Source of the DNA: Candidatus Helarchaeota archaeon
GTDB taxonomy: Archaea; Asgardarchaeota; Lokiarchaeia; Helarchaeales; RDOG01
Direction: 5' to 3'
NCBI GenBank assembly: GCA_019058315.1
Contig: JAHPZH010000007.1
Location: 128,001 to 192,000, forward strand
DNA length: 64,000 nucleotides
The position numbers and the translations under genes are program-made. Every line of letters starts with the position of its first letter. Positions within the stretch are counted from its first letter, which is position 1. Positions 46,902-59,812 of the stretch are shown here, piece by piece. The notes beneath the pieces were generated by a model. It searched no databases. It saw nothing but the letters and a program-made list of their open reading frames with translations, and had not been told where the DNA came from.

Positions 46902-47525
46902 TTATTCTTTTATGAATAAAAACGCCAGAATAAAAATCCATGACTGATAGGCATATATTGAAATCCGTTCAAATAATCCCAATAATTCAATATTATTCAT
47001 CATCAATACCGAAGTTAAGCCACCAAAACTAGCCATAATAATCAGTGTAATTATTGAATATAATCTAAATGATTTCCACTGTTTCTCACTGTAAAGACCT
47101 ATCCCAATCATTGGTATAGCTAGTACTATTAATATAATGTTTAATCCTGTGAGAATTATATGCATTGTTCCAGGGAAAGTTCCGGGCATAGGAATAGCAG
47201 TAAAAGGATCCATTGGAAAAATACTCCCCGATAATGCTGAAAATATTCCCAGAATCATAATGAATATGCCACCTAAGAATATTAATTTACTCTGCTCAAA
47301 TTTATAATATGTAATTACTCCAATTCCAAAAATAACTAACATAATTGCAGAGATAACGAAAAGCGAACTTAATAAGTAAGTATTTTTAGAACCAGCTTGA
47401 GTTAATTCACTCACCGCATTTATAATTGGACTATAGCCTTGTGTAATGATACTACCGATAATATCATTTAATAAAAATACGATGGGACCTAAAATACCAC
47501 CATAAAAGAGAAGTTTTTTATCCAT
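46902..47525 (-). CDS. DUF998-like membrane protein
   Basis: GYSPI...VSEL, IFPMD, H, GLFERI; about 6 TM segments. Confidence 0.8.
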   Translation of the reverse strand: MDKKLLFYGGILGPIVFLLNDIIGSIITQGYSPIINAVSELTQAGSKNTYLLSSLFVISAIMLVIFGIGVITYYKFEQSKLIFLGGIFIMILGIFSALSGSIFPMDPFTAIPMPGTFPGTMHIILTGLNIILIVLAIPMIGIGLYSEKQWKSFRLYSIITLIIMASFGGLTSVLMMNNIELLGLFERISIYAYQSWIFILAFLFIKE

Positions 47526-47670
47526 GTCTTTATCATCACCGAATTATTATTGCAAATAATCTCGTTGCTTTATAAAATCAATGTTTTTATATCTTATTAA
47601 AAATATAATTAGATAATTTTATTTATATTTATTGATAATTATTGATAGTACTATTTTTGGTGGAGATATT

Positions 47671-49950
47671 TTGAAAAAAAGTAGCGATCAGACTAAAGAA
47701 ACGATATTAACCATGCTTTCAAACCCACTACGCTCACAAGTTCTGAAATTTCTAAGTCAACAAAGCCCATTATCATTTACGGATATAATGGAAAAATTAA
47801 AAATGGATCCCTCCACAGATGCTGGTAAATTTGGATACCATCTTAGAGCTTTGAAAGATACCCAACTAATCAGTGGTGGATCCGAATCGGGTTATAGGTT
47901 AACCAAAATTGGAGAAAAAGTAGTTGAGTTTTTATGGACTTTAGGTGATTTGATAAAATCAGAAGCTCTTGGAGAAATCCAGGTTAGAACATCAAGATAT
48001 TCAGTTGAAAAATTTGACAGAAATAAGATAGCCCTAGCTCTACAAAAAGAAGCAAATATTCCTAGAGATCTTGCTGAAGATATTTCAAAAGAAGCTGAAG
48101 AACGATTGATTAATTCAAAAATTAAATATTTTACCGCACCCTTGATACGTGAATTTGTTAATTTTATCCTTTTAGAAAGAGGTTTAGAAAATTATCGACA
48201 TGCTCTTACAAGATTGGGTCTTCCACCATATGATGTTAAAGAATTAATAAAATCACAAAAGAGCATTTCAAATCCAACATTTATAAAAAGAATAGCAGGT
48301 GATGCTATTCTGGAACAATATTTATTATTAAATGTTCTGGACCATAAAATAGCCGATGCTCATTTAAGTGGTGATATTTTCATTCCAAATGCTAATTATT
48401 TCATCTTAAGACCAAATTCTGTACAACATGATGCACGAATTTTTTTCAGTGAAGGTCTTCCAAGTATGGGCTCTCTAATTGCAATAAGCCCTCCAAAGAG
48501 CTTTAGAACCGCTTTAGGCATTATAGCAAAAATTTTTAACATTTCAAATAGCGCAAGCGACCAATCCTTTGATCATTTTAATGTATTTTTAGCCCCTTTT
48601 ATAAAAAATTTATCACAAGACGATATAAAGAAAAATATTCGAATTTTTTTGGAAGATATCGGCTATCAATTCGATTCCTCAGGAATAAATATTAATTTAG
48701 AGTTTTTAATACCTTCATATCTTCAAGATAGTCCAGCAGTTGGTCCCGATGGTAAGGTTAATGGTATTTATGGGGATTATTTGGAGGAAACACAATTATT
48801 ATTATCGTTACTATTAGATGTGCTAATAGAAGGAGATATCAAAGGGCGTCCCTTTCTTTTACCAAATCAAATTCTTAAAATTCGTCCTGAGGTATTAGCT
48901 CGTGATGAATATAAACCATTATTAATGAAAGTCCATGAGTTAATTCTAAAATTTGGAACACCTTTTTTAGTGAATGCAACGAAAGATTGGCAAACTAAAA
49001 ACGTTAATTTAACAGGAGGTCTAGATCGACTCGCGGCTACATGGAAAGAAGTAGAAGTAGATACTTTACGGACTGGAAATTTAGATTGGGTCATTATTAA
49101 TCTCCCTAGAATTGCTTATGAATCGGAAAATGACGATGATAAATTTTTTGATTTATTAGATACTAGATTAGATTTATCTTATAATGCTTTAAAGCAAAAA
49201 AAAGAAATAATTGATATAAGAATGAATGAAGATAGACTACTACCTTTCTTATCTGCTTCGGTAAAGGGAGAGCCTTATTTTCGAATTGAAAATGCCTCTT
49301 TTTCTATTAGCTATCTAGGTTTACCCCAAGCAGTTAAAATACATACGAATTCAAAAGTATCTGATCATACAGGTTTTAATTTCGCAAAACGAATATTGGT
49401 ATATTTAAATAAATTTTCAAAGGAATCTAGTGAGAAATCAGGTCTTAGGTTTACAATAAAGCAATCAATTTCAAATGGATGGGCCTTCAAACTGGCGGAA
49501 TTGGATAGAGAGTATAATATCTGGAGAAAACGAAAAATAGATGCTAAGCATCAATTCGACTTTTATACTGCAGAAAATTTATTCTCCTCAACCTCTATTC
49601 CGATGAAAAAAAGAATTCAATTAGAAGGAGAATTTCAACAGTATCTTAAAGGCGGTCATATGTCTTTAATCTCAATTGATAGTCCATCATTTGATAGTAA
49701 AAATCTATTGGAGATTACTCGTGATATTTGTAATTCTTCTATAGGAATATTTGGATACGTTCATAACCTTACTTATTGCTCTTCATGTGGTATTAGTTTA
49801 AACGGAATTCATGAAAAATGCCTTAAATGCAGCTCTGCAGGGACTAATATTAACCATTATAGCCGTCAAGTTGGACCATATAAAATTATTTCTCCACAGA
49901 ATAATATTATTATGAATAATATTAAAAATCGGCAAATTTATTCGGCATAA
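47671..49950 (+). CDS. wHTH + ATP-cone + class III ribonucleotide reductase (NrdD)-like protein, catalytic residues lost
   Basis: LSNPLR..L..L...LSFTDIM...GKFGYHL (wHTH); VRTS...EKFDR.KI...TAPLIRE (ATP cone); AHLSGD, GNL..V.INLPR, GGH, CSSC..CLKC; GGAGAT SD before TTG at 47671. Confidence 0.85.
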   Translation: MKKSSDQTKETILTMLSNPLRSQVLKFLSQQSPLSFTDIMEKLKMDPSTDAGKFGYHLRALKDTQLISGGSESGYRLTKIGEKVVEFLWTLGDLIKSEALGEIQVRTSRYSVEKFDRNKIALALQKEANIPRDLAEDISKEAEERLINSKIKYFTAPLIREFVNFILLERGLENYRHALTRLGLPPYDVKELIKSQKSISNPTFIKRIAGDAILEQYLLLNVLDHKIADAHLSGDIFIPNANYFILRPNSVQHDARIFFSEGLPSMGSLIAISPPKSFRTALGIIAKIFNISNSASDQSFDHFNVFLAPFIKNLSQDDIKKNIRIFLEDIGYQFDSSGININLEFLIPSYLQDSPAVGPDGKVNGIYGDYLEETQLLLSLLLDVLIEGDIKGRPFLLPNQILKIRPEVLARDEYKPLLMKVHELILKFGTPFLVNATKDWQTKNVNLTGGLDRLAATWKEVEVDTLRTGNLDWVIINLPRIAYESENDDDKFFDLLDTRLDLSYNALKQKKEIIDIRMNEDRLLPFLSASVKGEPYFRIENASFSISYLGLPQAVKIHTNSKVSDHTGFNFAKRILVYLNKFSKESSEKSGLRFTIKQSISNGWAFKLAELDREYNIWRKRKIDAKHQFDFYTAENLFSSTSIPMKKRIQLEGEFQQYLKGGHMSLISIDSPSFDSKNLLEITRDICNSSIGIFGYVHNLTYCSSCGISLNGIHEKCLKCSSAGTNINHYSRQVGPYKIISPQNNIIMNNIKNRQIYSA

Positions 49951-49978: not shown

Positions 49979-50320
49979 TTAAGTTAAATCTAATTTAATA
50001 AATTCATATTCTCTGATAAATTTACGTTGTGTAATATAGCTATATGCCTCGATGACCATTTTATTTTCATAAATTCTTCCATCATATTCAACTATACCAC
50101 TAATACTAGTCGTTGTAAATTTTATCCGAATACTACTTAAAATGAAATTACCTTTACCTACTGATTTAACAGAATCTTTAACAAACCATTTTTTCATTGA
50201 TTGAGGAGATGTTTTCGAATAAGCGGTAATTACCGTCCCATCTTCAAAAAATCTAATATAATGACTATAATCCTCCAATTTACTCCTATAAATTCCATCG
50301 AATCTTAACAAATTGCCCAA
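49979..50320 (-). CDS. Hypothetical protein
   Basis: 113 aa ORF, LRFDGIY...YIRFFEDGTV. Confidence 0.6.
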   Translation of the reverse strand: MGNLLRFDGIYRSKLEDYSHYIRFFEDGTVITAYSKTSPQSMKKWFVKDSVKSVGKGNFILSSIRIKFTTTSISGIVEYDGRIYENKMVIEAYSYITQRKFIREYEFIKLDLT

Positions 50321-50490
50321 CTCTAATTTTAGATTGAACTAAATAAGAGTCAAAATCAATAAAATATTGCATTTCCAAATTTTAAAAAATTTATATTTTA
50401 ATTATTACTTAACGTAAAATAGTAAATGAAGAAATTTGGGGAGTTAAAATGGAAAAATGGTTACTTCAGTTATTTAAAAGGATGATTTAA

Positions 50491-51702
50491 TTGACTTATC
50501 GAAATAGAAGACATAGAATGTATTTAGAATTCGGAGGACCAAAAATTGCCAAAAAATTTGAACTTGCTCAAGTACGTGGAATGGATGAAATTGAAAATGG
50601 AAAAGTTTCAATAATTGGTTCAGATTTAAGAGATTTGGAACAAGGAAAATCGTATCCAATTGGAATTCTTATTGAAATTGCTGGAAAAGAAGTTAAAAAA
50701 GAGTTAGAACCGATTTTTGAGTGTAGAATTAAGGATTTCACAGATAGTATTGGTAATATGTTTTATGTATATCATCGATCAGATATTTGGTTTAGATTCT
50801 CAACATTTGTCTATGAAAGAGGATTCAACTCTCTCAAAGTGTGGGGTGAAATGTTGATTGCTTCTTATCAAAGGGAATACGAAAAAATTATTGAAAAAAT
50901 CCAAATAACTTTTTTTACTGAAGAGAATAAAGTTAATGAATGGCATGAAAAAGCCACTAAGATTTATTGTTCAAGAGATGACCAAGTAAAATCTCTTTCA
51001 GACGAGAGAGTTGATACTTTTTTTGGGTGTGCTTTGTGTAATTATATTGTTCCAAATCATTTTTGTATAATCACACCAGACAGTTGTGGTCTATGCGGTT
51101 CAATAAACTGGATTAATGCAAAAGCAAGTTTTGAGCTGGATCCAAAGGGTCCAATTTTCTTCATCAGAAAGGGACAAAGTATAGATACTATTAGTGGTGA
51201 ATGGAGCGGAATTAATGAGATCATTAAGGCAAGAACCCTGGGTCAAATTGAAAGAATTCATCTTTACACGATTCTAAGCCCATTTAACCATACTAGTTGT
51301 CATTGCTTAGAGGCAGTCGCCTTTTATATACCTGAGGTTGATGGGATAGGAATTTTAAATAGAAATTTTAAAGTGCCCGCTATTAATGGATTGCCATTTT
51401 CAACTATGTCAAGTGTAATTAGGAAAGGAGAACAAAGTTATGGTTTTGTTGGAACAGCAATAGGACAAATGCGCTCCCCAAAATTTTTACAAGCTGACGG
51501 TGGATGGGATAGAATTGTTTGGATAACTAATCATGTAAAAGATCGCATTAAAGATGATATATCGATTGAAATAGTTAATAAAATCGCAACTGAATCGGAT
51601 GTAACTAATTTAATGGAATTAAAAGATTTCCTTATATTAAATAATCATCCCATAGTTAAAAAATGGACAAAAGAAATATATAATTCTAATTTTGAGGAGT
51701 AA
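50491..51702 (+). CDS. cdhC: Acetyl-CoA decarbonylase/synthase beta subunit homolog (divergent, orphan)
   Basis: EFGGPK, CALC...C...LCG, HTSCHC.E, IPEVDGIG, GLPFS, SPKFLQADGGW.R.VW, HP. Confidence 0.85.
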   Translation: MTYRNRRHRMYLEFGGPKIAKKFELAQVRGMDEIENGKVSIIGSDLRDLEQGKSYPIGILIEIAGKEVKKELEPIFECRIKDFTDSIGNMFYVYHRSDIWFRFSTFVYERGFNSLKVWGEMLIASYQREYEKIIEKIQITFFTEENKVNEWHEKATKIYCSRDDQVKSLSDERVDTFFGCALCNYIVPNHFCIITPDSCGLCGSINWINAKASFELDPKGPIFFIRKGQSIDTISGEWSGINEIIKARTLGQIERIHLYTILSPFNHTSCHCLEAVAFYIPEVDGIGILNRNFKVPAINGLPFSTMSSVIRKGEQSYGFVGTAIGQMRSPKFLQADGGWDRIVWITNHVKDRIKDDISIEIVNKIATESDVTNLMELKDFLILNNHPIVKKWTKEIYNSNFEE

Positions 51703-51770
51703 ATGTTAACGGGATGGTTGTTCATAAGAAACTAGATACTTAAATTCGATAAATTGTTGAATTAATTATT

Positions 51771-52388
51771 GTGATTTTAGATGATGAATTGCTTGTTCCA
51801 CGTAAATTATATATAGATGCCGGAGTTCACTTTGGAACTGCCAAAAAAACTTCAAATATGGAACCATATATTTATAAAACTATTAATACGGGCAAAAACC
51901 AAATTAATCTTATTGATATTCGAAAAACAGCTGCCAGAATTCGAGTAGCAGCAAAGTTTATTTCTAGATACCACCCAAATAAAGTTCTAGTAACTTCAAA
52001 GCGAAGATATAGTCATCAAGCAATAAAAAAATTTTCAGAAATAATTGGTACAAAATATATAAAGGGGGAAATTAAACCGGGAACTTTAACAAATTATTCA
52101 TCTAAGCATTATATTGAAACGGATTTATTAATTATAATTGATCCTAAAAAAGATGTTGATGCGATAAATGAATCTTCTATTTCCAAAATACCAATAATAT
52201 GTCTGTCTAATACAGATAATAACTTCATAAATGTCGATTTGGTGATTCCGGCAAATAATAGAGGAAGAAAAGCATTAGCATTAATTTTTTGGATTTTAAC
52301 AAGGCAAGTTCTTTTGGAAAGTGGTGAAATAAAATTTTTTAGCGAATTTAATTTTCCAATTTCCGACTTCCTTTCCCCCTTACATTAA
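51771..52388 (+). CDS. rps2: 30S ribosomal protein uS2 homolog (divergent)
   Basis: LLVP...Y..AGVH.GT, M.PYIY, PGTLTN, DP..D..AI.E, PANNRGRKAL. Confidence 0.88.
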   Translation: MILDDELLVPRKLYIDAGVHFGTAKKTSNMEPYIYKTINTGKNQINLIDIRKTAARIRVAAKFISRYHPNKVLVTSKRRYSHQAIKKFSEIIGTKYIKGEIKPGTLTNYSSKHYIETDLLIIIDPKKDVDAINESSISKIPIICLSNTDNNFINVDLVIPANNRGRKALALIFWILTRQVLLESGEIKFFSEFNFPISDFLSPLH

Positions 52389-52472
52389 ATTTTATAAATA
52401 TAGTTCATATTAAGTAGAAAATCTAAATATTTGAATTAAAAAATGATTAAAGGAATATAAAAAAGGGATTTT

Positions 52473-52886
52473 ATGGTCAAGTCAAAGAAAAATCTAGATA
52501 TTTATGGTCTCATCGTAATAGATCGTTCAGAAATGACAATAGCCACATTATCTGGTGGTAAAAAAAATATTATAAAGATAATGAGTGCAGCCAAACCATT
52601 TAAACGATTGGAGCGTTGCGAAATACAGAAAAATTATAGACCCCTTATTGAACAAGCTACACAGGAGTTCTTCATTCGTGCAGGAGAACACATTAACAAT
52701 CAATTTTTAAGTCTACAATTAAAAGGGATAATTATAGGGGGAGGTGGACCAACTAAAAAATATTTCGTAAAAGGTGATTATTTAGATAATCGTTTAAAGG
52801 AAAAAATAATTGCTATAATCGATATTGGTTATTCTGGTGAGCAAGGTATTGACGATTTAATTAAAAAAGCCAAATTAATATTATAA
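52473..52886 (+). CDS. Stand-alone aRF1/eRF1 middle (M) domain lacking GGQ
   Basis: YGLIVIDR.E.TIA.L.G, LIEQ...EFF.R.GE..N..F, GIIIGG.GPTK..F..GDYL..RL...I...D..YSGEQG...L. Confidence 0.8.
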   Translation: MVKSKKNLDIYGLIVIDRSEMTIATLSGGKKNIIKIMSAAKPFKRLERCEIQKNYRPLIEQATQEFFIRAGEHINNQFLSLQLKGIIIGGGGPTKKYFVKGDYLDNRLKEKIIAIIDIGYSGEQGIDDLIKKAKLIL

Positions 52887-53224
52887 AATGGCGATAATTA
52901 TAAATAAAGGAAGTAAATGTAAACTAGTGCGGTACTAGTCTAATAAATTTAAAAATTAATTACATTTTTTATGAGATTTTTTCTTCTATTTATTCTAAAA
53001 TATTTCAATTTCGAAAATTCGCATTTCTTGTATAAATGCTTATTAAATTCCTTAAAAAATTGTGGGGTTTTTATTATTTTTTAAAAATTCACTATTGTTT
53101 TGAATGGAAAAAGAGTTAGATTAATTAAAAAAATATCAATTTAATTAGATAAATTTATCAAAAAAAGTTTAAATAATAGAAAAACCCATTATGATTATCA
53201 AATTCAATTTAATTTTTAAAAGGT

Positions 53225-53395
53225 ATGGGATGTCTTGCGATGAATATTAGAACTTTTCCAAGATATTGGTATCATAGAAAGATTTTGAAAGCTCCAGTCG
53301 AGAAATCAGATGATATGGATCCCAAAATACAAGATATTAATCCCAAAATAGGAAAAGCTGACCCTGGCCCTACTAAAAAATCCAAATTAATCTAA
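53225..53395 (+). CDS. Possible small protein (51-56 aa; start 53225 or 53240)
   Basis: Hand translation MGCLAMNIRTFPRYWYHRKILKAPVEKSDDMDPKIQDINPKIGKADPGPTKKSKLI; higher-GC patch inside an AT-rich gap. Confidence 0.35.
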   Translation: MGCLAMNIRTFPRYWYHRKILKAPVEKSDDMDPKIQDINPKIGKADPGPTKKSKLI

Positions 53396-53603
53396 AAACA
53401 ATTGAAATAATCCAAATTCATATTTAATTATATTTTTTTTAATTAATTATTTGTTATTTTAAATAAACGAATTATACTATTTCTAAAATTTTTATAAATA
53501 CCATAAATAAGAAAAAATTCTATTCTGAAATTTAAATTGAGATTATTTATTCTTTGGACTCAAAAAATTTATTTTATAACTGAATAAATAAAAATAGATT
53601 AAA

Positions 53604-54542
53604 TTGACTAAAACTTCTGAGATTTCATTTAATGATAGGGACATAATTTCAATCAAAGATTTAACTCGCGATGAAATTGAATACATTTTAGACATTGCAC
53701 TTAAAATGAAGAAATATCATGATGACCCTACTGATCTTTTAAAGGGAAAAATTCTCGCAACTCTTTTTTATGAGCCCAGTACTCGAACCCGTTTGAGTTT
53801 TACAAGTGCAATGTTAAAATTAGGAGGGGAAGTAATGGGGTTCAGCGATCCAAAGGCTTCATCTGCTGCAAAAGGTGAAAACTTATCTGATTCTATTCTT
53901 TGTATTGAAAGTTATTGTGATATTATAGTTATTCGTCATAAATTAGAAGGGAGTGCCAGATTAGCAGCTGAAGTTTCTAAAAATCCTATTATTAATGCTG
54001 GAAGTGGGACTCAGGAACATCCTACTCAAGCTTTATTAGATTTATTGACTATCAGGAACGAATTTAAATCATTAGATGGTCTAAAAATTGGAATGGTTGG
54101 GGATCTAAAATATGGTAGAACAGTAAAATCCCTCTCCTATGCACTTTCATTATATGATGTTGAATTATCATTCATCTCTCCTTCCATGTTAAGCATGAGA
54201 AAAGAAGTATTAAAGGATCTTGATGATGCTGGAATAAAATATGAAGAATTTTCTGATTTAAGTTCAGTTCTTCCCTCATTAGATGTGATTTACGCTACCC
54301 GTATACAAAAAGAACGTTTCCCCGATCCTGCGGATTATGAAAAAGTTCGAGGATCTTATAAAATAAACAAAGAGTTTTTAAATAATGCAAAAGATTCAAT
54401 GATTTTAATGCATCCTTTACCCAGAGTCGATGAAATAGCATTTGATGTTGATAAACTCCCTTGTTCTAGATATTTTATTCAACCGCTTAATGGTGTTTTA
54501 ATTAGGATGGCATTACTTGGGTTAGTATTAGGAAAAATATAA
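53604..54542 (+). CDS. pyrB: Aspartate carbamoyltransferase catalytic subunit
   Basis: FYEPSTRT, HPTQ, GDLKYGRT, RIQKER, HPLPR. Confidence 0.98.
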   Translation: MTKTSEISFNDRDIISIKDLTRDEIEYILDIALKMKKYHDDPTDLLKGKILATLFYEPSTRTRLSFTSAMLKLGGEVMGFSDPKASSAAKGENLSDSILCIESYCDIIVIRHKLEGSARLAAEVSKNPIINAGSGTQEHPTQALLDLLTIRNEFKSLDGLKIGMVGDLKYGRTVKSLSYALSLYDVELSFISPSMLSMRKEVLKDLDDAGIKYEEFSDLSSVLPSLDVIYATRIQKERFPDPADYEKVRGSYKINKEFLNNAKDSMILMHPLPRVDEIAFDVDKLPCSRYFIQPLNGVLIRMALLGLVLGKI

Positions 54543-54543
54543 A

Positions 54544-55023
54544 GTGAAAAAAATGGTAGAGAAAGAGCTTAGAGTTAGAAAAATCAAGCAAGGCACAGTT
54601 ATAGATCATATAAGCCCTGGAACTGCGTTAAGGGTTTTATCTATTCTTGGAATTATGGGAAAGGAGGGTCATATACTTTCCATTGCTATAAACGTTCCAA
54701 CGGGTAAAAATCAGAGTAACAGAAAAGATATTGTAAAAATTGAAAATAAAGAATTAGAGATTACCGATATTAATAAAATAGCTTTAATAAGTCCTCATGC
54801 TACAATAAATATAATTAGAGACTACAAAGTCGTTAGCAAAGAAAAAGTAAAACTTCCATCAGAACTTAAAGATATTATTAAATGCATTAATCCTAACTGC
54901 ATCACAAATAGTAGAGAACCGATAAAATCGCATTTTACAGTCGAAAATAAAGAACCAATATTATTAAGATGTAATTATTGTAATATTATTATGGATTTAA
55001 AGGATATTTTAAAAAATATATAA
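54544..55023 (+). CDS. pyrI: Aspartate carbamoyltransferase regulatory subunit
   Basis: GTVIDHI, KDIVKIE, CINPNC...CNYC. Confidence 0.97.
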   Translation: MKKMVEKELRVRKIKQGTVIDHISPGTALRVLSILGIMGKEGHILSIAINVPTGKNQSNRKDIVKIENKELEITDINKIALISPHATINIIRDYKVVSKEKVKLPSELKDIIKCINPNCITNSREPIKSHFTVENKEPILLRCNYCNIIMDLKDILKNI

Positions 55024-56053: not shown

Positions 56054-56992
56054 ATGCAATGTAGGGGTATAAATATCGATCCAAATATTATGAAAGAGGT
56101 CTTGAAACAAATTAATAAAGACAGAATCTCGTCTGAATTAATTTATAATATAATTAGAGATAAAGGATGGGATTTTAAAAGGAAAGAATTATATTTAATT
56201 TCAAAATTAAGAATAGAGTTTGAGGATCCAGAATTTTGGTATTATTTGGGTCTATTTTTCTTTGAAAATTATGAATTGGATAAAAGCCAAGATATATTTT
56301 TAGAAAATGCGTTATATTGCTTTAATAAACCATTTGAAAACAATAAAAATAAAGGTAAAACCATTTTATGTGATGCTTTTGATAATCCAAAAGATATTTT
56401 TTCCTTATCATATTCAGAATATATTGAATTTTTGAACGAATCTCTTGATCATTTGATTGTGATTTATAATAAACCATGCTTTTACGAAGGTTTTTCTTTA
56501 CTTGAGGTTATTCCAAAGAAACCAGAAATAGTCGAGAGGTTTGAGGTTATTATTACAGCTGAATATAATGAACTTATTCAAGATAAAGAAAAAATATTTG
56601 GTGAACGATTACGTCAAATTCAATTTGAAAATAAATTATATGGGATTTTAAAAATATATAAAAAAATACGGCTCTCTGAACTGGCAAAAAAATTAGATTG
56701 TGAACAATCCTATTTAGAAGAAACTTTAGAAAAACTTGTTTTAGAAGAAAAAATTAATGGAACCATAAGAAATCAGTTTTTAACAATTACTAAATTACCT
56801 GAAGATCAAGAAATAATACCTATTATTACAATTAAAGAAGGTCAATGTGCTATATGCAGGGAGGAAATCAAAGAAGAATCATTAACTTGCTCAAATTGCT
56901 CTTCAAAATTCCATAAAAGCTGTTTTTCAAAATGGATTGAAAAAAGCGAATTATGTCCAGTTTGTCAAAAAGAACTTGAAATATTTGAATAA
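56054..56992 (+). CDS. Helical/TPR-like + PCI-like winged helix + RING finger protein
   Basis: IYKKIRLSELAKKL...LE..L..LVLEEKINGTI (PCI-like); CAIC...CSNC...FHKSC..KW......CPVC. Confidence 0.78.
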   Translation: MQCRGINIDPNIMKEVLKQINKDRISSELIYNIIRDKGWDFKRKELYLISKLRIEFEDPEFWYYLGLFFFENYELDKSQDIFLENALYCFNKPFENNKNKGKTILCDAFDNPKDIFSLSYSEYIEFLNESLDHLIVIYNKPCFYEGFSLLEVIPKKPEIVERFEVIITAEYNELIQDKEKIFGERLRQIQFENKLYGILKIYKKIRLSELAKKLDCEQSYLEETLEKLVLEEKINGTIRNQFLTITKLPEDQEIIPIITIKEGQCAICREEIKEESLTCSNCSSKFHKSCFSKWIEKSELCPVCQKELEIFE

Positions 56993-57051
56993 TAATAAAT
57001 AAATCATATATTTTTTATTAGAAAATTAATTTAAAATAAGTTGGGAATGAT

Positions 57052-57792
57052 ATGAGCCATGATTATTGGTTAAGAAAAGGTTTAAACGAGAGTACGAGAG
57101 AAAGGAAAATTAAATGCTTTGAAAATGCAATTCGCAAATACTCAACTCACGAAATCTTTGCATTTGATGAGTTGGGTCATTGGATTGCTGGATATTTGAA
57201 ACTTAACAACATAAATAGTTTTCTGACTTATAGATTTTTTGGAAGTGTCCATGATAGACTTGGAAATACAAGAAAAGCCATCGAATATTATAAAAAAGCA
57301 ATAGATATCGACCCTAATGATGAGTTTATCTGGCATAGAATCGCGGAAAACTATAGAAACTTGTTAAATTACGAAAAAATAATAGAATGTTATGAAAATT
57401 CAATAAAAATTGATCCAAATATAAAATTTAAATGGATTAATTTAGGAGAAGCTTATTTCAATTTAAATAAATATAAGAAAGCAATTGAATGTTATCAAAA
57501 AGCTTTAGCTATAGAAGAACATCATCTCGAACAAATTGATTTAATTAATGCATGGGAAGGTTTAGGAAATGCACATAAAGAGTTAAAAAATTATGAAAAA
57601 GCTATAAAATGTTATGAAAAAGTAATAAAACTAGATTACAATTATGATTTGGCTTGGGAAAATATGGGATTGATTTATGAGGAATTAAAAAATTATCCAA
57701 AAGCAATTGAATGTTATAAAAATGCATTAAAAATTAACAAATTTAATGAAATTGCTCAAGAACGATTAGAAAAGTGTGAGTCAAAGGAGTGA
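57052..57792 (+). CDS. Tetratricopeptide repeat protein
   Basis: About 5 repeats W..LG..Y..L..Y.KAI.CY.KA. Confidence 0.92.
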   Translation: MSHDYWLRKGLNESTRERKIKCFENAIRKYSTHEIFAFDELGHWIAGYLKLNNINSFLTYRFFGSVHDRLGNTRKAIEYYKKAIDIDPNDEFIWHRIAENYRNLLNYEKIIECYENSIKIDPNIKFKWINLGEAYFNLNKYKKAIECYQKALAIEEHHLEQIDLINAWEGLGNAHKELKNYEKAIKCYEKVIKLDYNYDLAWENMGLIYEELKNYPKAIECYKNALKINKFNEIAQERLEKCESKE

Positions 57793-57799
57793 ATAAAAT

Positions 57800-59812
57800 A
57801 TTTCTAATATACAAGAACCAGATGTAGAAAAATTAGGTCTCTCCAAAGATATTGATGGTTTAATTAAAGCTTTAGAATATCCAAAATGGTATATTAGAAA
57901 AGATGCTGCAAAATGGCTTGGAAAATTAAAGGAATTAAAAACAGCAAAATTATTAATACAACTACTCAAGGACGAAGATTGTTATGTACGAGAGAATGCA
58001 GAGGATTCTCTTATAAGTATGGGTAGTGATGTGGTTGAACTCCTCATCCCTTATCTTAAAGACAAAAATAATAGTATTAAGGGAAATGTAGCAAGTATTC
58101 TTGGTCGTATTGGAGATAAGAGAGCAATTAAACCCCTTATGCCGCTTTTAAATGATGATGACGAAATTGTTCAAATCCGAGTATCTTATGCTCTTAAGAA
58201 TCTTGACTGGAAACCTACCGATAAACAATTAGAAATGAGTTACGAATTTGCTAAAGGTGATTGGAAAGATCCTCATACAATGGACAAAGGTCTACAAAAA
58301 ATTGAAGAAATAATAAACTCTCCTGATTTATTACCAAAACCACCTATAAAACCACCAATCAAACCAGTTCCTAAATCAAAACCTCCTATTCCATCTTTAA
58401 AAGGAAAACCATTAGAAATTATTCTTCCATATTTAAATGATAATGATGAAAATATCCGTATTGAAGCAATAAAAGCTCTTAAACATGTAAAAGACGATAA
58501 AAAAGTGAATCTTCTCATCCATTCTTTCGAAGATAAAGATGAAGATGTCAGATATGAGGCAGTTAAATCTTTAAGTAAGATAAAAAATCTTAAAGCGGTA
58601 GATTCTATAGCTCAACTTTTATGGGACGATTCCTATTTAGTTCAAAAAAAGGCATTAGAAGTCTTAAGAAAAATTGGAAATGCAAACGCGGTAGATCCTC
58701 TGATTAAAGCTCTAAAAGATAAAGTCATTTATACTGAAGCTTTTGAAACTATTGAAAAAATTGGAAAATCTGCTATTACACCTCTTATCAAATTCCTTAG
58801 GGATGAAGATTATTGGATTCGAAAAAACACAGCAGAAACTCTTAATAAACTTGGATGGAAAGCAAAGAATGAAACCGAAAAAGCTTATTATTTAATTGCA
58901 ATTGATGACTCTAAAGGGTGGGAAGAGATAGTAAAATTAGGAGATTTTGCCCTAGAACCCCTCATTAAATCATTAAGTTATAAAAAGTTTCCTAGATTTG
59001 GAGATATTATTTTTCCGGATGATAGAGCAATTGCCCTTTCTGAATTAGGAGAGATAGCATTAGAGCCTCTTATAAAGGCACTAAAGGAAGGAGATTCTAA
59101 TACAAGATGGGGTGCAGCTGAGGCTTTAACGTTTATAGGAGATGTAAGGGCTCTAGAACCCCTTGCCCAAGCTTTAAATGATGAAAATTCAGATGTGAGA
59201 CATAGCGCAATTAGTGCTTTTAGTCATTATTCAGATAAAGAAGTAATAGATGTTTATATAAAGTATAATATGTTAAAGCATAAAGATATTCGAGTCAGAT
59301 TTAGTGCAATGAGAGATATAGGTTGGAGAGAAGATTATCGATTAGTGGAACCTCTACTCCAAGCATTAAAAGAAGATAACTATAGAATTATTGATTCAGC
59401 AGTTCATTCTTTATCAAAGTTAAAAGAAAAAAGAGCAGTAGAACCTCTTATAAAATTACTTAAACATAAAGACTCGATGATTATAAGAACAGCAGCTGAA
59501 GGTCTTGGAGATATAGGAGATGTAAGAGCAGTAGAACCTCTCATAGGGATGCTTAATAATGAAGATTGGCAAATTTTAAGAGAAATAATCAATGCGCTTG
59601 GTAAAATAAGAGATAAAAAAGCAGTAGAGCCCCTTATCCAACTCTTAAATGATAAGGATAAATTTATTAGATTGGAAGCTGTAGAAGCTCTTACAAATAT
59701 TGGTGACTTTACAGCAATTGATCCGATTTATGAGACCATACAAAAAGAAAAAGTTAATTATATAGCAGAAGCTATGCAAAAAGCCTTGGAAGAGTTAAGA
59801 AAAAAAATTTAA
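57800..59812 (+). CDS. HEAT (PBS-lyase-like) repeat protein; start extended to ATT at 57800
   Basis: In-frame upstream of ATG 58019: ISNIQEPDVEKLGLSKDIDGLIKALEYPKWYIRKDAAKWLG...; many AVEPLI..L.D repeats; Pro-rich linker. Confidence 0.88.
   Translation: MSNIQEPDVEKLGLSKDIDGLIKALEYPKWYIRKDAAKWLGKLKELKTAKLLIQLLKDEDCYVRENAEDSLISMGSDVVELLIPYLKDKNNSIKGNVASILGRIGDKRAIKPLMPLLNDDDEIVQIRVSYALKNLDWKPTDKQLEMSYEFAKGDWKDPHTMDKGLQKIEEIINSPDLLPKPPIKPPIKPVPKSKPPIPSLKGKPLEIILPYLNDNDENIRIEAIKALKHVKDDKKVNLLIHSFEDKDEDVRYEAVKSLSKIKNLKAVDSIAQLLWDDSYLVQKKALEVLRKIGNANAVDPLIKALKDKVIYTEAFETIEKIGKSAITPLIKFLRDEDYWIRKNTAETLNKLGWKAKNETEKAYYLIAIDDSKGWEEIVKLGDFALEPLIKSLSYKKFPRFGDIIFPDDRAIALSELGEIALEPLIKALKEGDSNTRWGAAEALTFIGDVRALEPLAQALNDENSDVRHSAISAFSHYSDKEVIDVYIKYNMLKHKDIRVRFSAMRDIGWREDYRLVEPLLQALKEDNYRIIDSAVHSLSKLKEKRAVEPLIKLLKHKDSMIIRTAAEGLGDIGDVRAVEPLIGMLNNEDWQILREIINALGKIRDKKAVEPLIQLLNDKDKFIRLEAVEALTNIGDFTAIDPIYETIQKEKVNYIAEAMQKALEELRKKI
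58335..58392 (+). repeat. Short imperfect 12-bp tandem repeat encoding a KPPI/KPVP Pro-rich linker
   Basis: aaaaccacctat aaaaccaccaat caaaccagttcc ... aaaacctcctat. Confidence 0.6.

Follow-up and report, generated by a model that had tools for sequence, protein, structure and literature searches.

A winged helix and an ATP-cone fused to a catalytically dead class III ribonucleotide reductase: a probable transcription regulator in Asgard archaea, Bathyarchaeia and Methanomethylicia

The locus and its product

This article concerns a gene at positions 47671-49950 of a 64,000-nucleotide stretch of DNA from Candidatus Helarchaeota archaeon (contig JAHPZH010000007.1, positions 128,001 to 192,000), which we refer to as the window. 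Its product joins an ArsR/SmtB-type winged helix-turn-helix and an ATP-cone to the fold of NrdD, the class III ribonucleotide reductase (RNR), and the NrdD part has lost the residues of the radical chemistry. We believe that the product is probably a pseudoenzyme-based one-component transcription regulator derived from class III RNR. The host genome (5.79 Mb, 12 contigs, 94% complete) holds the window on contig 7, and the window is AT-rich, with a G+C content of about 30%. The gene and the parts of its product are the following (AF2 stands for AlphaFold2).

47671-49950, + strand: whole gene, winged helix + ATP-cone + catalytically dead NrdD fold; 759 amino acids (aa), TTG start (open reading frame, Pfam, NCBIfam, AF2, Foldseek)
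47704-47940, + strand: ArsR/SmtB-type winged helix-turn-helix, residues 12-90, with the putative recognition helix DAGKFGYHLRAL (DUF7347, HTH_5, CadC profile match, N-terminal AF2 model)
47977-48240, + strand: ATP-cone, residues 103-190 (PF03477, predicted fold, match to NrdR structures)
48271-49770, + strand: NrdD-like ten-stranded barrel without the residues of radical chemistry (PF13597, Foldseek, column comparison)
48418-48420, + strand: codon of Ser250, in place of the beta-A active-site Cys (alignment with paralogues)
49003-49029, + strand: finger-loop remnant NLTGGLDRL, G449/G450 opposite the CC of true NrdD (alignment)
49777-49830, + strand: retained Zn(Cys)4 site, C703, C706, C717 and C720 (invariant in an alignment of 103 sequences, common to true NrdD)
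49861-49881, + strand: degenerate glycyl-radical loop SRQVGPY, G735 kept, Thr replaced by Val and Tyr by Pro (alignment)

The frame is open from 47632 to 49950. As the start codon we chose the TTG at 47671, which has GGTGGAG ahead of it, and the same TTG is the start in a relative that is 91% identical (L110). Pfam places DUF7347 at residues 12-87 (E 1.9e-11), HTH_5 at residues 18-67 (28.3 bits against a gathering cut-off of 22) and NRDD (PF13597) at residues 201-754 (E 3.2e-80). The ATP-cone (PF03477, residues 103-175) scores 25.7 bits in hmmscan, which is 0.1 under the cut-off of 25.8, and 30.2 bits, above the cut-off, in a six-frame search of the genome. The NCBIfam equivalog for NrdD, TIGR02487, gives the protein 281.2 bits, under its cut-off of 326.35, and the PF13597 score is 272 bits for this gene against 488-522 bits for the two intact NrdD paralogues of the same genome.

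Loss of the catalytic residues

Residues of the active site were judged from an alignment of the protein with these two paralogues. The beta-A motif reads RPNSVQHD, so that S250 replaces the active-site Cys; the finger loop reads NLTGGLDR, with G449/G450 where the paralogues have CC, and has no Cys that could carry a thiyl radical; DIFIPN stands in place of DIHIH, and the phosphate (PAE) loop is KQSISNGWA where the paralogues have EQPAESTAG. The motif GLPQ is present as well. A first-pass annotation of the locus, made by a model from the letters alone, had already reported RPNSVQHD with its Ser codon at 48418-48420, NLTGGLDR without Cys, and the substitutions FIPN, GLPQ and SISNG, and all of them are indeed seen in the alignment. 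Its reading of the glycyl-radical loop as RQVGPY needs a qualification. The flanks are changed as it said (SRQVGPY in the protein, SR(I/V)TGYY in the paralogues), but the radical glycine itself, Gly735, is still present; it is followed by Pro, there is Val for Thr, and the NrdD pattern R-V-x-G-[FWY] does not fit the loop.

The same annotation had named a Cys placed on the finger-loop tip by a structure-based alignment as an observation that would refute it. The 759-aa protein has five Cys in total (687, 703, 706, 717 and 720) and none before residue 687, therefore no alignment whatsoever can put a Cys into that loop. All four Cys of the Zn site are retained, as in true NrdD. Given that both active-site Cys, the PAE loop and the canonical glycyl-radical motif are gone, radical ribonucleotide reduction is impossible, and by its residues the protein is a catalytically dead copy of a class III RNR.

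The homologues tell the same. The finger-loop CC is missing across 120 close homologues; the beta-A column of these 120 holds Ser in 47, Glu in 31, Asp in 15 and Asn in 14, the sole two Cys belonging to true NrdDs, and the column of the radical glycine holds Gly in 67 (55%), Ala in 27 and Ser in 14. A complete catalytic set was found neither in any of the 120 nor in any of another 100 or so full-length proteins with the N-terminal module. One subgroup from Bathyarchaeia still has a TGCR finger loop and a Glu, with Ala at the position of the radical glycine, and on its sequences looks like an intermediate stage of the decay. We also compared columns: 82 are near-invariant in 27 true archaeal NrdDs, and the dead family retains 33 of them and loses 30. 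Those retained are mostly Gly, Pro and the Zn Cys, together with H231, D254, R256, N435, N477, K510, D612, Y632 and G661-G662; those lost include the beta-A Cys, the finger-loop CC, the PAE Glu and the flanks of the radical Gly.

Predicted structure

An AF2 model of the full protein, built from 103 homologues, has a per-residue confidence score (pLDDT) of 88.5 and a predicted template-modelling score (pTM) of 0.77. When the model is compared with the PDB by Foldseek, the best matches are all class III RNRs (E 4e-28 to 1e-20), the best being the Prevotella copri NrdD 8p2s (E 3.9e-28), and S. thermophilus 9dca, T. maritima 4col and T4 1h79 are among the others. Target-normalised template-modelling scores (TM-scores) to class III RNR structures, including 8p2s, 4col and 1h79, are 0.72-0.79. 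A ten-stranded alpha/beta barrel of the type of RNRs and glycyl-radical enzymes is what the AF2 model, Foldseek and PF13597 all indicate.

The first 195 residues were modelled separately (pLDDT 83.6). This model matches the winged helices of ArsR, CadC and HlyU with target-normalised TM-scores of 0.72-0.75, and its second half matches the ATP-cone structures of NrdR, 9a6n and 7p37. A profile of the N-terminal family matches CadC 1u2w (E 2e-4), and this alignment puts an invariant YHL onto the recognition helix of ArsR. A winged helix of the ArsR type is really present at the N-terminus, and this is a point on which the first-pass annotation could have failed. The ATP-cone is predicted to consist of strands 104-106 and 112-114, which form a beta-hairpin, followed by four helices, and PF03477 is recorded in most homologues. 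A search of the PDB with the cone as a single sequence gave no relevant match, and a profile search recovered the winged helix only. By profile and predicted fold we consider the ATP-cone to be present, with ATP/dATP as its putative ligand.

The architecture that the annotation had read from the letters therefore stands: an ArsR-like winged helix (HTH_5 at 28.3 bits, the CadC profile match, the TM-scores), an ATP cone behind it (the PF03477 profile, the fold match to NrdR cones) and a full-length NrdD fold with its Zn site kept (PF13597, Foldseek, the four Cys). Its summary, that the enzyme chemistry was lost while the reading frame and the allosteric scaffold were kept and a DNA-binding domain was gained, agrees with the lost motifs, with the retained fold, Zn site and cone, and with the winged helix.

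Ribonucleotide reductases of the host genome

Two intact NrdD genes exist in the same genome besides the dead copy. One, on the same contig, encodes 624 aa and has SMCCRL as finger loop and SRVTGYY as radical motif; the other, on contig 6, encodes 708 aa with an ATP-cone, SQCCRL and SRITGYY. The sole NrdG of the genome (180 bits, above the cut-off), the radical-SAM activase with which NrdD works, is encoded on contig 5 and is unlinked to any nrdD. It is thus correct, as first annotated, that no nrdG adjoins the dead gene, and the proposed look for a second intact nrdD with its nrdG in the genome has found two of the former and one of the latter. A large subunit of class I or class II RNR was not found in the host genome. 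Besides the proteins named, the six-frame search of the genome brought up no other ATP-cone protein above the family threshold, and therefore no NrdR.

Distribution, phylogeny and selection

A survey of this architecture across archaea, also suggested by the first-pass annotation, reveals a conserved family that is under selection. In a search that covered 5.8 billion proteins, over 120 of the matches (E < 1e-155) are 700-780 aa long and share its three Pfam domains; they belong to Helarchaeota, Lokiarchaeia, Odin-, Jord-, Njord-, Freya- and Atabeyarchaeia, Bathyarchaeia and Methanomethylicota. In the databases the closest proteins bear the labels Helarchaeota, Hodarchaeota or Promethearchaeota, and most homologues are named 'anaerobic ribonucleoside-triphosphate reductase'. 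In a scan of one genome per GTDB species at least 584 stretches were confirmed, the carriers being Asgard archaea, Bathyarchaeia and Methanomethylicia.

When a profile of the winged helix with the ATP-cone was run against 1.84 billion cluster representatives, it gave 205 clusters at 50% identity (E<=1e-30). All full-length carriers that were checked are catalytically dead, and some proteins with the N-terminal module are down to 560-700 aa, with the Zn/C-terminal domain lost. None of 120 true Asgard NrdDs examined bears a winged helix. No protein consisting of a winged helix and an ATP-cone on their own is established: the short matches checked end near contig ends or look frameshifted. The relative in the genome of Candidatus Mnemosynella biddleae (L085) matched residues 102-745 of the query only and may be a form with ATP-cone and dead barrel that has no winged helix. 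Several true Asgard NrdDs of about 1,160-1,220 aa bear intein domains (PF14528, PF14890), and none of the dead family does among the sequences listed.

The dead proteins group as one clade in a maximum-likelihood tree (support of 100 in the Shimodaira-Hasegawa-like approximate likelihood-ratio test, SH-aLRT), sister to the archaeal NrdDs that bear an ATP-cone, and the subclades of Methanomethylicia, Bathyarchaeia and Asgard archaea agree with taxonomy. One clade with subclades that follow taxonomy fits a single old origin and vertical descent thereafter.

The ratio of nonsynonymous to synonymous substitution rates (dN/dS) of the gene is 0.064, 0.085 and 0.110 against relatives that are 91%, 75% and 71% identical, and in the two closer pairs (with L110 and L108) the winged helix (0.02-0.06) and the cone (0.035-0.045) have the lowest values. 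Mean column entropy in 103 homologues is 0.94 bits for the ATP-cone, 1.51 bits for the winged helix, 1.8-2.2 bits for the barrel and 2.4 bits for the former glycyl-radical region, which is the least conserved. Six residues of the winged helix, A51, G52, F54, Y56, H57 and L58, are invariant in these 103 sequences. The family is under strong purifying selection, with the tightest constraint on the ATP-cone and the winged helix, and the pattern of conservation is that of a scaffold with a conserved N-terminal sensor and effector, which is the reverse of the pattern of an enzyme.

Gene neighbourhood

In the window the genes of pyrimidine synthesis lie downstream of the dead-NrdD gene:

53604-54542, + strand: pyrB (Pfam), a conserved syntenic neighbour and candidate member of the regulon
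54544-55023, + strand: pyrI (Pfam), a conserved syntenic neighbour and candidate member of the regulon

For counts of context we used the loci of 49 species with at least 4 kb of downstream sequence. At 20 of the 49 loci the orthologue has a true nrdD directly downstream in the same orientation, often after a glutaredoxin (grx) gene; pyrB is found within 4 kb at 22, and one or the other at 34. At one locus of the 49 the downstream gene is that of a class II RNR (nrdJ). Odin-, Atabeya- and Baldrarchaeia, Culexarchaeia and some Bathyarchaeia have the orthologue followed directly by pyrB (convergent) and pyrI. Many Bathyarchaeia have the orthologue, the glutaredoxin gene and a true nrdD on the same strand, and then pyrB/pyrI. 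In Methanomethylicia the orthologue sits between an operon of HMG-CoA synthase, thiolase and DUF35 and the gene for NAC. The tandem order with nrdD fits an origin by tandem duplication, and equally it fits a regulator that lies beside its target.

The two closest relatives with long contigs (L108 and L109) have the order GGACT, GCS2, orthologue, an open reading frame (ORF) of 49-51 aa, pyrB, pyrI, epimerase and a RING protein. The order in the window is the same, with two additions. One is a gene for a DUF998 membrane protein (46902-47525, - strand) between GCS2 and the dead-NrdD gene; the relatives do not have it, and in those 71-75% identical GCS2 ends about 45 nt before the orthologue. The promoter of the dead-NrdD gene may therefore be new here. 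The other is 3.6 kb of extra sequence before pyrB (49979-53600), with a 113-aa ORF on the - strand, a short CdhC/ACS-beta-like protein (403 aa), an ORF of the ribosomal S2 family (205 aa) and an ORF with domain 2 only of eRF1 (137 aa). L108 and L109 do not have this block and their pyrB follows the orthologue at about 600 bp; it looks like a lineage-specific insertion. Farther downstream in the window (56054-59812) are genes for a protein with PCI and RING-H2 finger domains (312 aa), a TPR protein and a HEAT-repeat protein of 597 aa, eukaryote-like signature domains that are typical of Asgard archaea.

Promoter region and search for operators

Upstream of the start codon the following elements can be pointed out:

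47620-47670, + strand: putative promoter and leader, with an AT-rich TATA-like stretch and the ribosome-binding site GGTGGAG
47630-47637 and 47640-47647, + strand: direct repeat TATTGATA (sequence)
47645-47654, + strand: perfect 10-bp palindrome ATAGTACTAT, 17 nt upstream of the start codon

There are 10 copies of the palindrome ATAGTACTAT in the 5.79-Mb genome. Four of the sites are intergenic, and two of these four are upstream of the dead-NrdD gene and upstream of the 624-aa nrdD on the same contig. Another perfect palindrome, the 17-bp AACTGTTATTAACAGTT, is situated upstream of the 708-aa ATP-cone nrdD (contig 6; L002:900-1000) at a distance of about 170 nt, and we note it as a candidate regulatory site.

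Dyads and k-mers were sought in 49 dereplicated upstream regions, with 501 upstream windows as control. No recurrent dyad appeared in the 49 regions. The only enriched words were those of the TATA box and CACTA/TAGTG (18 of 49 against 40 of 501); since many of the CACTA/TAGTG sites overlap the GGTG of the ribosome-binding site, this signal is confounded and we do not accept the word as an operator. Inspection by eye of pyrB-pyrI intergenic regions gave isolated resemblances and no consistent motif. The sequence CACTATTAATGTAG, for instance, is present in an Odin promoter of the orthologue and in one Bathyarchaeia pyrI leader, and we set it aside as an isolated resemblance. NrdR binds pairs of palindromic boxes at the promoters of RNR genes; an operator similar to the NrdR box was not found in these searches.

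Two conserved blocks, TAAATGTTAATTTG and TTATACAGAATTTTATAC, are common to the grx-nrdD promoters of Bathyarchaeia, where they lie between the dead-NrdD gene and grx-nrdD (loci L019, L050, L052, L070, L073, L076, L078, L080, L087, L095 and L097). The consensus of the first is TAAATGT(T/C)AATTTG, and both are situated upstream of the TATA box, just upstream of the sequence CTAAAAAATTAAATA, which resembles a BRE (transcription factor B recognition element) and TATA box. No tie of these blocks to the dead-NrdD protein is established.

Comparison with known systems

The closest analogy is with NrdR. In both proteins a DNA-binding domain is joined to an ATP-cone, and the expected logic, from ATP/dATP to RNR genes, would be the same. 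NrdR is reported to be rare in archaea (PMC9110341). The differences are substantial: NrdR has a Zn ribbon where our protein has a Cys-free ArsR-type winged helix, it has nothing like the dead NrdD body of 560 aa, and according to the tree our protein descends from NrdD and not from NrdR. Without a Zn ribbon it is not a member of the NrdR family.

With the NrdDs that carry an ATP-cone (P. copri, 8p23/8p2s, and the 708-aa paralogue of the same genome) the protein shares the fold, the order of ATP-cone, barrel and Zn/C-terminal part, and the Zn(Cys)4 site. The beta-A Cys, the finger-loop Cys, the PAE loop and the canonical radical motif are found in NrdD only, whereas the dead protein has the additional N-terminal winged helix and an equivalog score below the cut-off.

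The resemblance to ArsR/SmtB proteins (CadC, ArsR, HlyU) is in the fold of the winged helix and in where the recognition helix lies. Our protein differs by an insertion of four residues, DAGK, before the recognition helix, and by the fusion to an ATP-cone and an RNR body, while ArsR/SmtB proteins are stand-alone dimers of about 100 aa. As to an ArsR-type metal site, the winged helix has no Cys, so that a thiolate site is not possible; a site of the alpha-5 type was not looked for.

A further parallel is Bacillus subtilis PurR, which consists of a winged helix and a catalytically inactive phosphoribosyltransferase fold that senses phosphoribosyl pyrophosphate, together with similar regulators made from enzyme folds. 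There too the dead fold of a metabolic enzyme is reused, for ligand sensing or for dimerisation, in a winged-helix protein that regulates the pathway of that enzyme, although fold and ligand are unrelated to those discussed here. In the literature searched we found no example of a regulator of the PurR type that is derived from an RNR, and no description of a fusion of winged helix, ATP-cone and NrdD.

Possible function of the protein

Our proposal is that the dead NrdD binds DNA through its winged helix, senses nucleotides and controls genes of nucleotide synthesis, as its domains and neighbours suggest, and that in archaea it is probably a switch, not described before, of the metabolism of DNA precursors. 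The barrel would hold the dimer together, as it does in NrdD, and might offer a second pocket for nucleotides. The ATP-cone would read ATP versus dATP and respond with an oligomeric or conformational change, and this change would determine the binding of the two winged helices to operators near promoters. The target promoters could be those of nrdD/grx, nrdJ and pyrBI, and perhaps that of the gene itself. Taken as a whole, the protein would be an archaeal counterpart of bacterial NrdR that is built from different parts.

Several observations weigh against this proposal and should be named. Where canonical ATP-cones have the phosphate motif KRDG, the cone of our protein reads RTSR. In the host genome the gene adjoins neither nrdD nor nrdG. 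Some of the genes whose order is conserved (HMG-CoA synthase/thiolase upstream, NAC downstream) have no evident link to nucleotide metabolism, so that the synteny may in part be inherited order and not a sign of co-regulation. No operator conserved across lineages came to light in the regions upstream of the gene, nrdD/grx or pyrBI; the palindrome ATAGTACTAT is missing from the 91%-identical relative L110 and is a weak lead only. Finally, polar residues of the barrel are invariant (H253, D254, N435, N477, Y536, G661-G662), which leaves room for another ligand or activity.

Class III RNRs are homodimers, and one may think of a protein-level partner, a dead subunit that forms heterodimers with NrdD or docks to it and relays the signal of the ATP-cone, the winged helix serving only for autoregulation or for protein contacts. 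The sister position to ATP-cone NrdDs and the probable origin by tandem duplication agree with such a partner, and so do the location directly upstream of grx-nrdD on the same strand in many Bathyarchaeia and the retention of about 40% of NrdD-invariant columns, mostly structural. We nevertheless consider it unlikely. On a complete Bathyarchaeia chromosome of 1.3 Mb (G034, L081) the dead fusion is the sole match to PF13597, and this genome has a class II RNR and no true NrdD; therefore the protein is not an obligate partner of NrdD, and for this reason the reading as a transcription factor is favoured. In addition, the gene is unlinked to nrdD here and at most loci of Asgard archaea and Methanomethylicia, and the winged helix, including residues of the recognition helix, is among the most constrained parts. 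It is also conceivable that the protein is a DNA-binding nucleotide sensor with targets outside RNR and pyrimidine synthesis, for example in replication, repair or the cell cycle, and that the synteny is inherited order. The conservation of HMG-CoA synthase/thiolase/DUF35 and NAC as neighbours, the failure to find an RNR-linked operator and the distance of the gene from both nrdD genes of the host genome speak for other targets. Set against them, the orthologue adjoins a true nrdD at 20 of 49 loci and is near pyrB at 22 of 49, across Asgard archaea, Culexarchaeia and Bathyarchaeia, and has nrdJ downstream at one locus, which in our opinion makes targets of another kind improbable.

The invariant polar residues of the barrel (to those above D612 and Y632 can be added) and the subgroup of Bathyarchaeia that keeps TGCR and Glu might mean that the protein is still an enzyme, with some non-radical nucleotide chemistry in the old active site combined with DNA binding, like BirA or PutA. 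We regard this as very unlikely: the former catalytic positions vary freely (S/E/D/N at beta-A, G/A/S at the radical Gly), among carriers of the module there is a progressive loss of the C-terminal domain, down to lengths of 560-700 aa, and the barrel evolves faster than the N-terminal domains. As for a pseudogene in decay, or a broken nrdD that annotation presents as a gene, the missing catalytic residues and the score under the NrdD equivalog cut-off are just what one would expect from it, but 759 open codons, a dN/dS of 0.06-0.11, hundreds of orthologues with the same architecture and a confidently predicted fold make it next to untenable; the data on conservation refute it. We thus maintain the interpretation of the protein as a transcription regulator.

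Implications

The name under which most of these proteins are stored in databases has practical consequences. It wrongly credits genomes with a class III RNR, as the complete Bathyarchaeia genome with class II only illustrates, and such misnaming skews inferences about oxygen physiology that are drawn from metagenome-assembled genomes.

To our knowledge, it is not known how RNR genes are controlled in most archaea, NrdR being rare there. The family described here is a concrete candidate for this role, in hundreds of species that include the Asgard relatives of eukaryotes. We may go further and speculate, tentatively and with somewhat more doubt than conviction, that it is an ancient master regulator of the supply of DNA precursors in archaea, older than the split between Asgard archaea and Thermoproteota (Bathyarchaeia, Methanomethylicia). 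It would have arisen when nrdD was duplicated in tandem, lost the radical chemistry and captured a winged helix; it would read the state of ATP, dATP and deoxyribonucleoside triphosphates (dNTPs) through the cone, and possibly through retained RNR pockets, and would set the transcription of RNR and pyrimidine-synthesis genes, as an analogue of NrdR and the first transcription factor with an RNR fold. If the regulatory role is true, this would be the first known case in which the scaffold of an RNR, with its allosteric ATP-cone, was reused as the sensor of a DNA-binding regulator.

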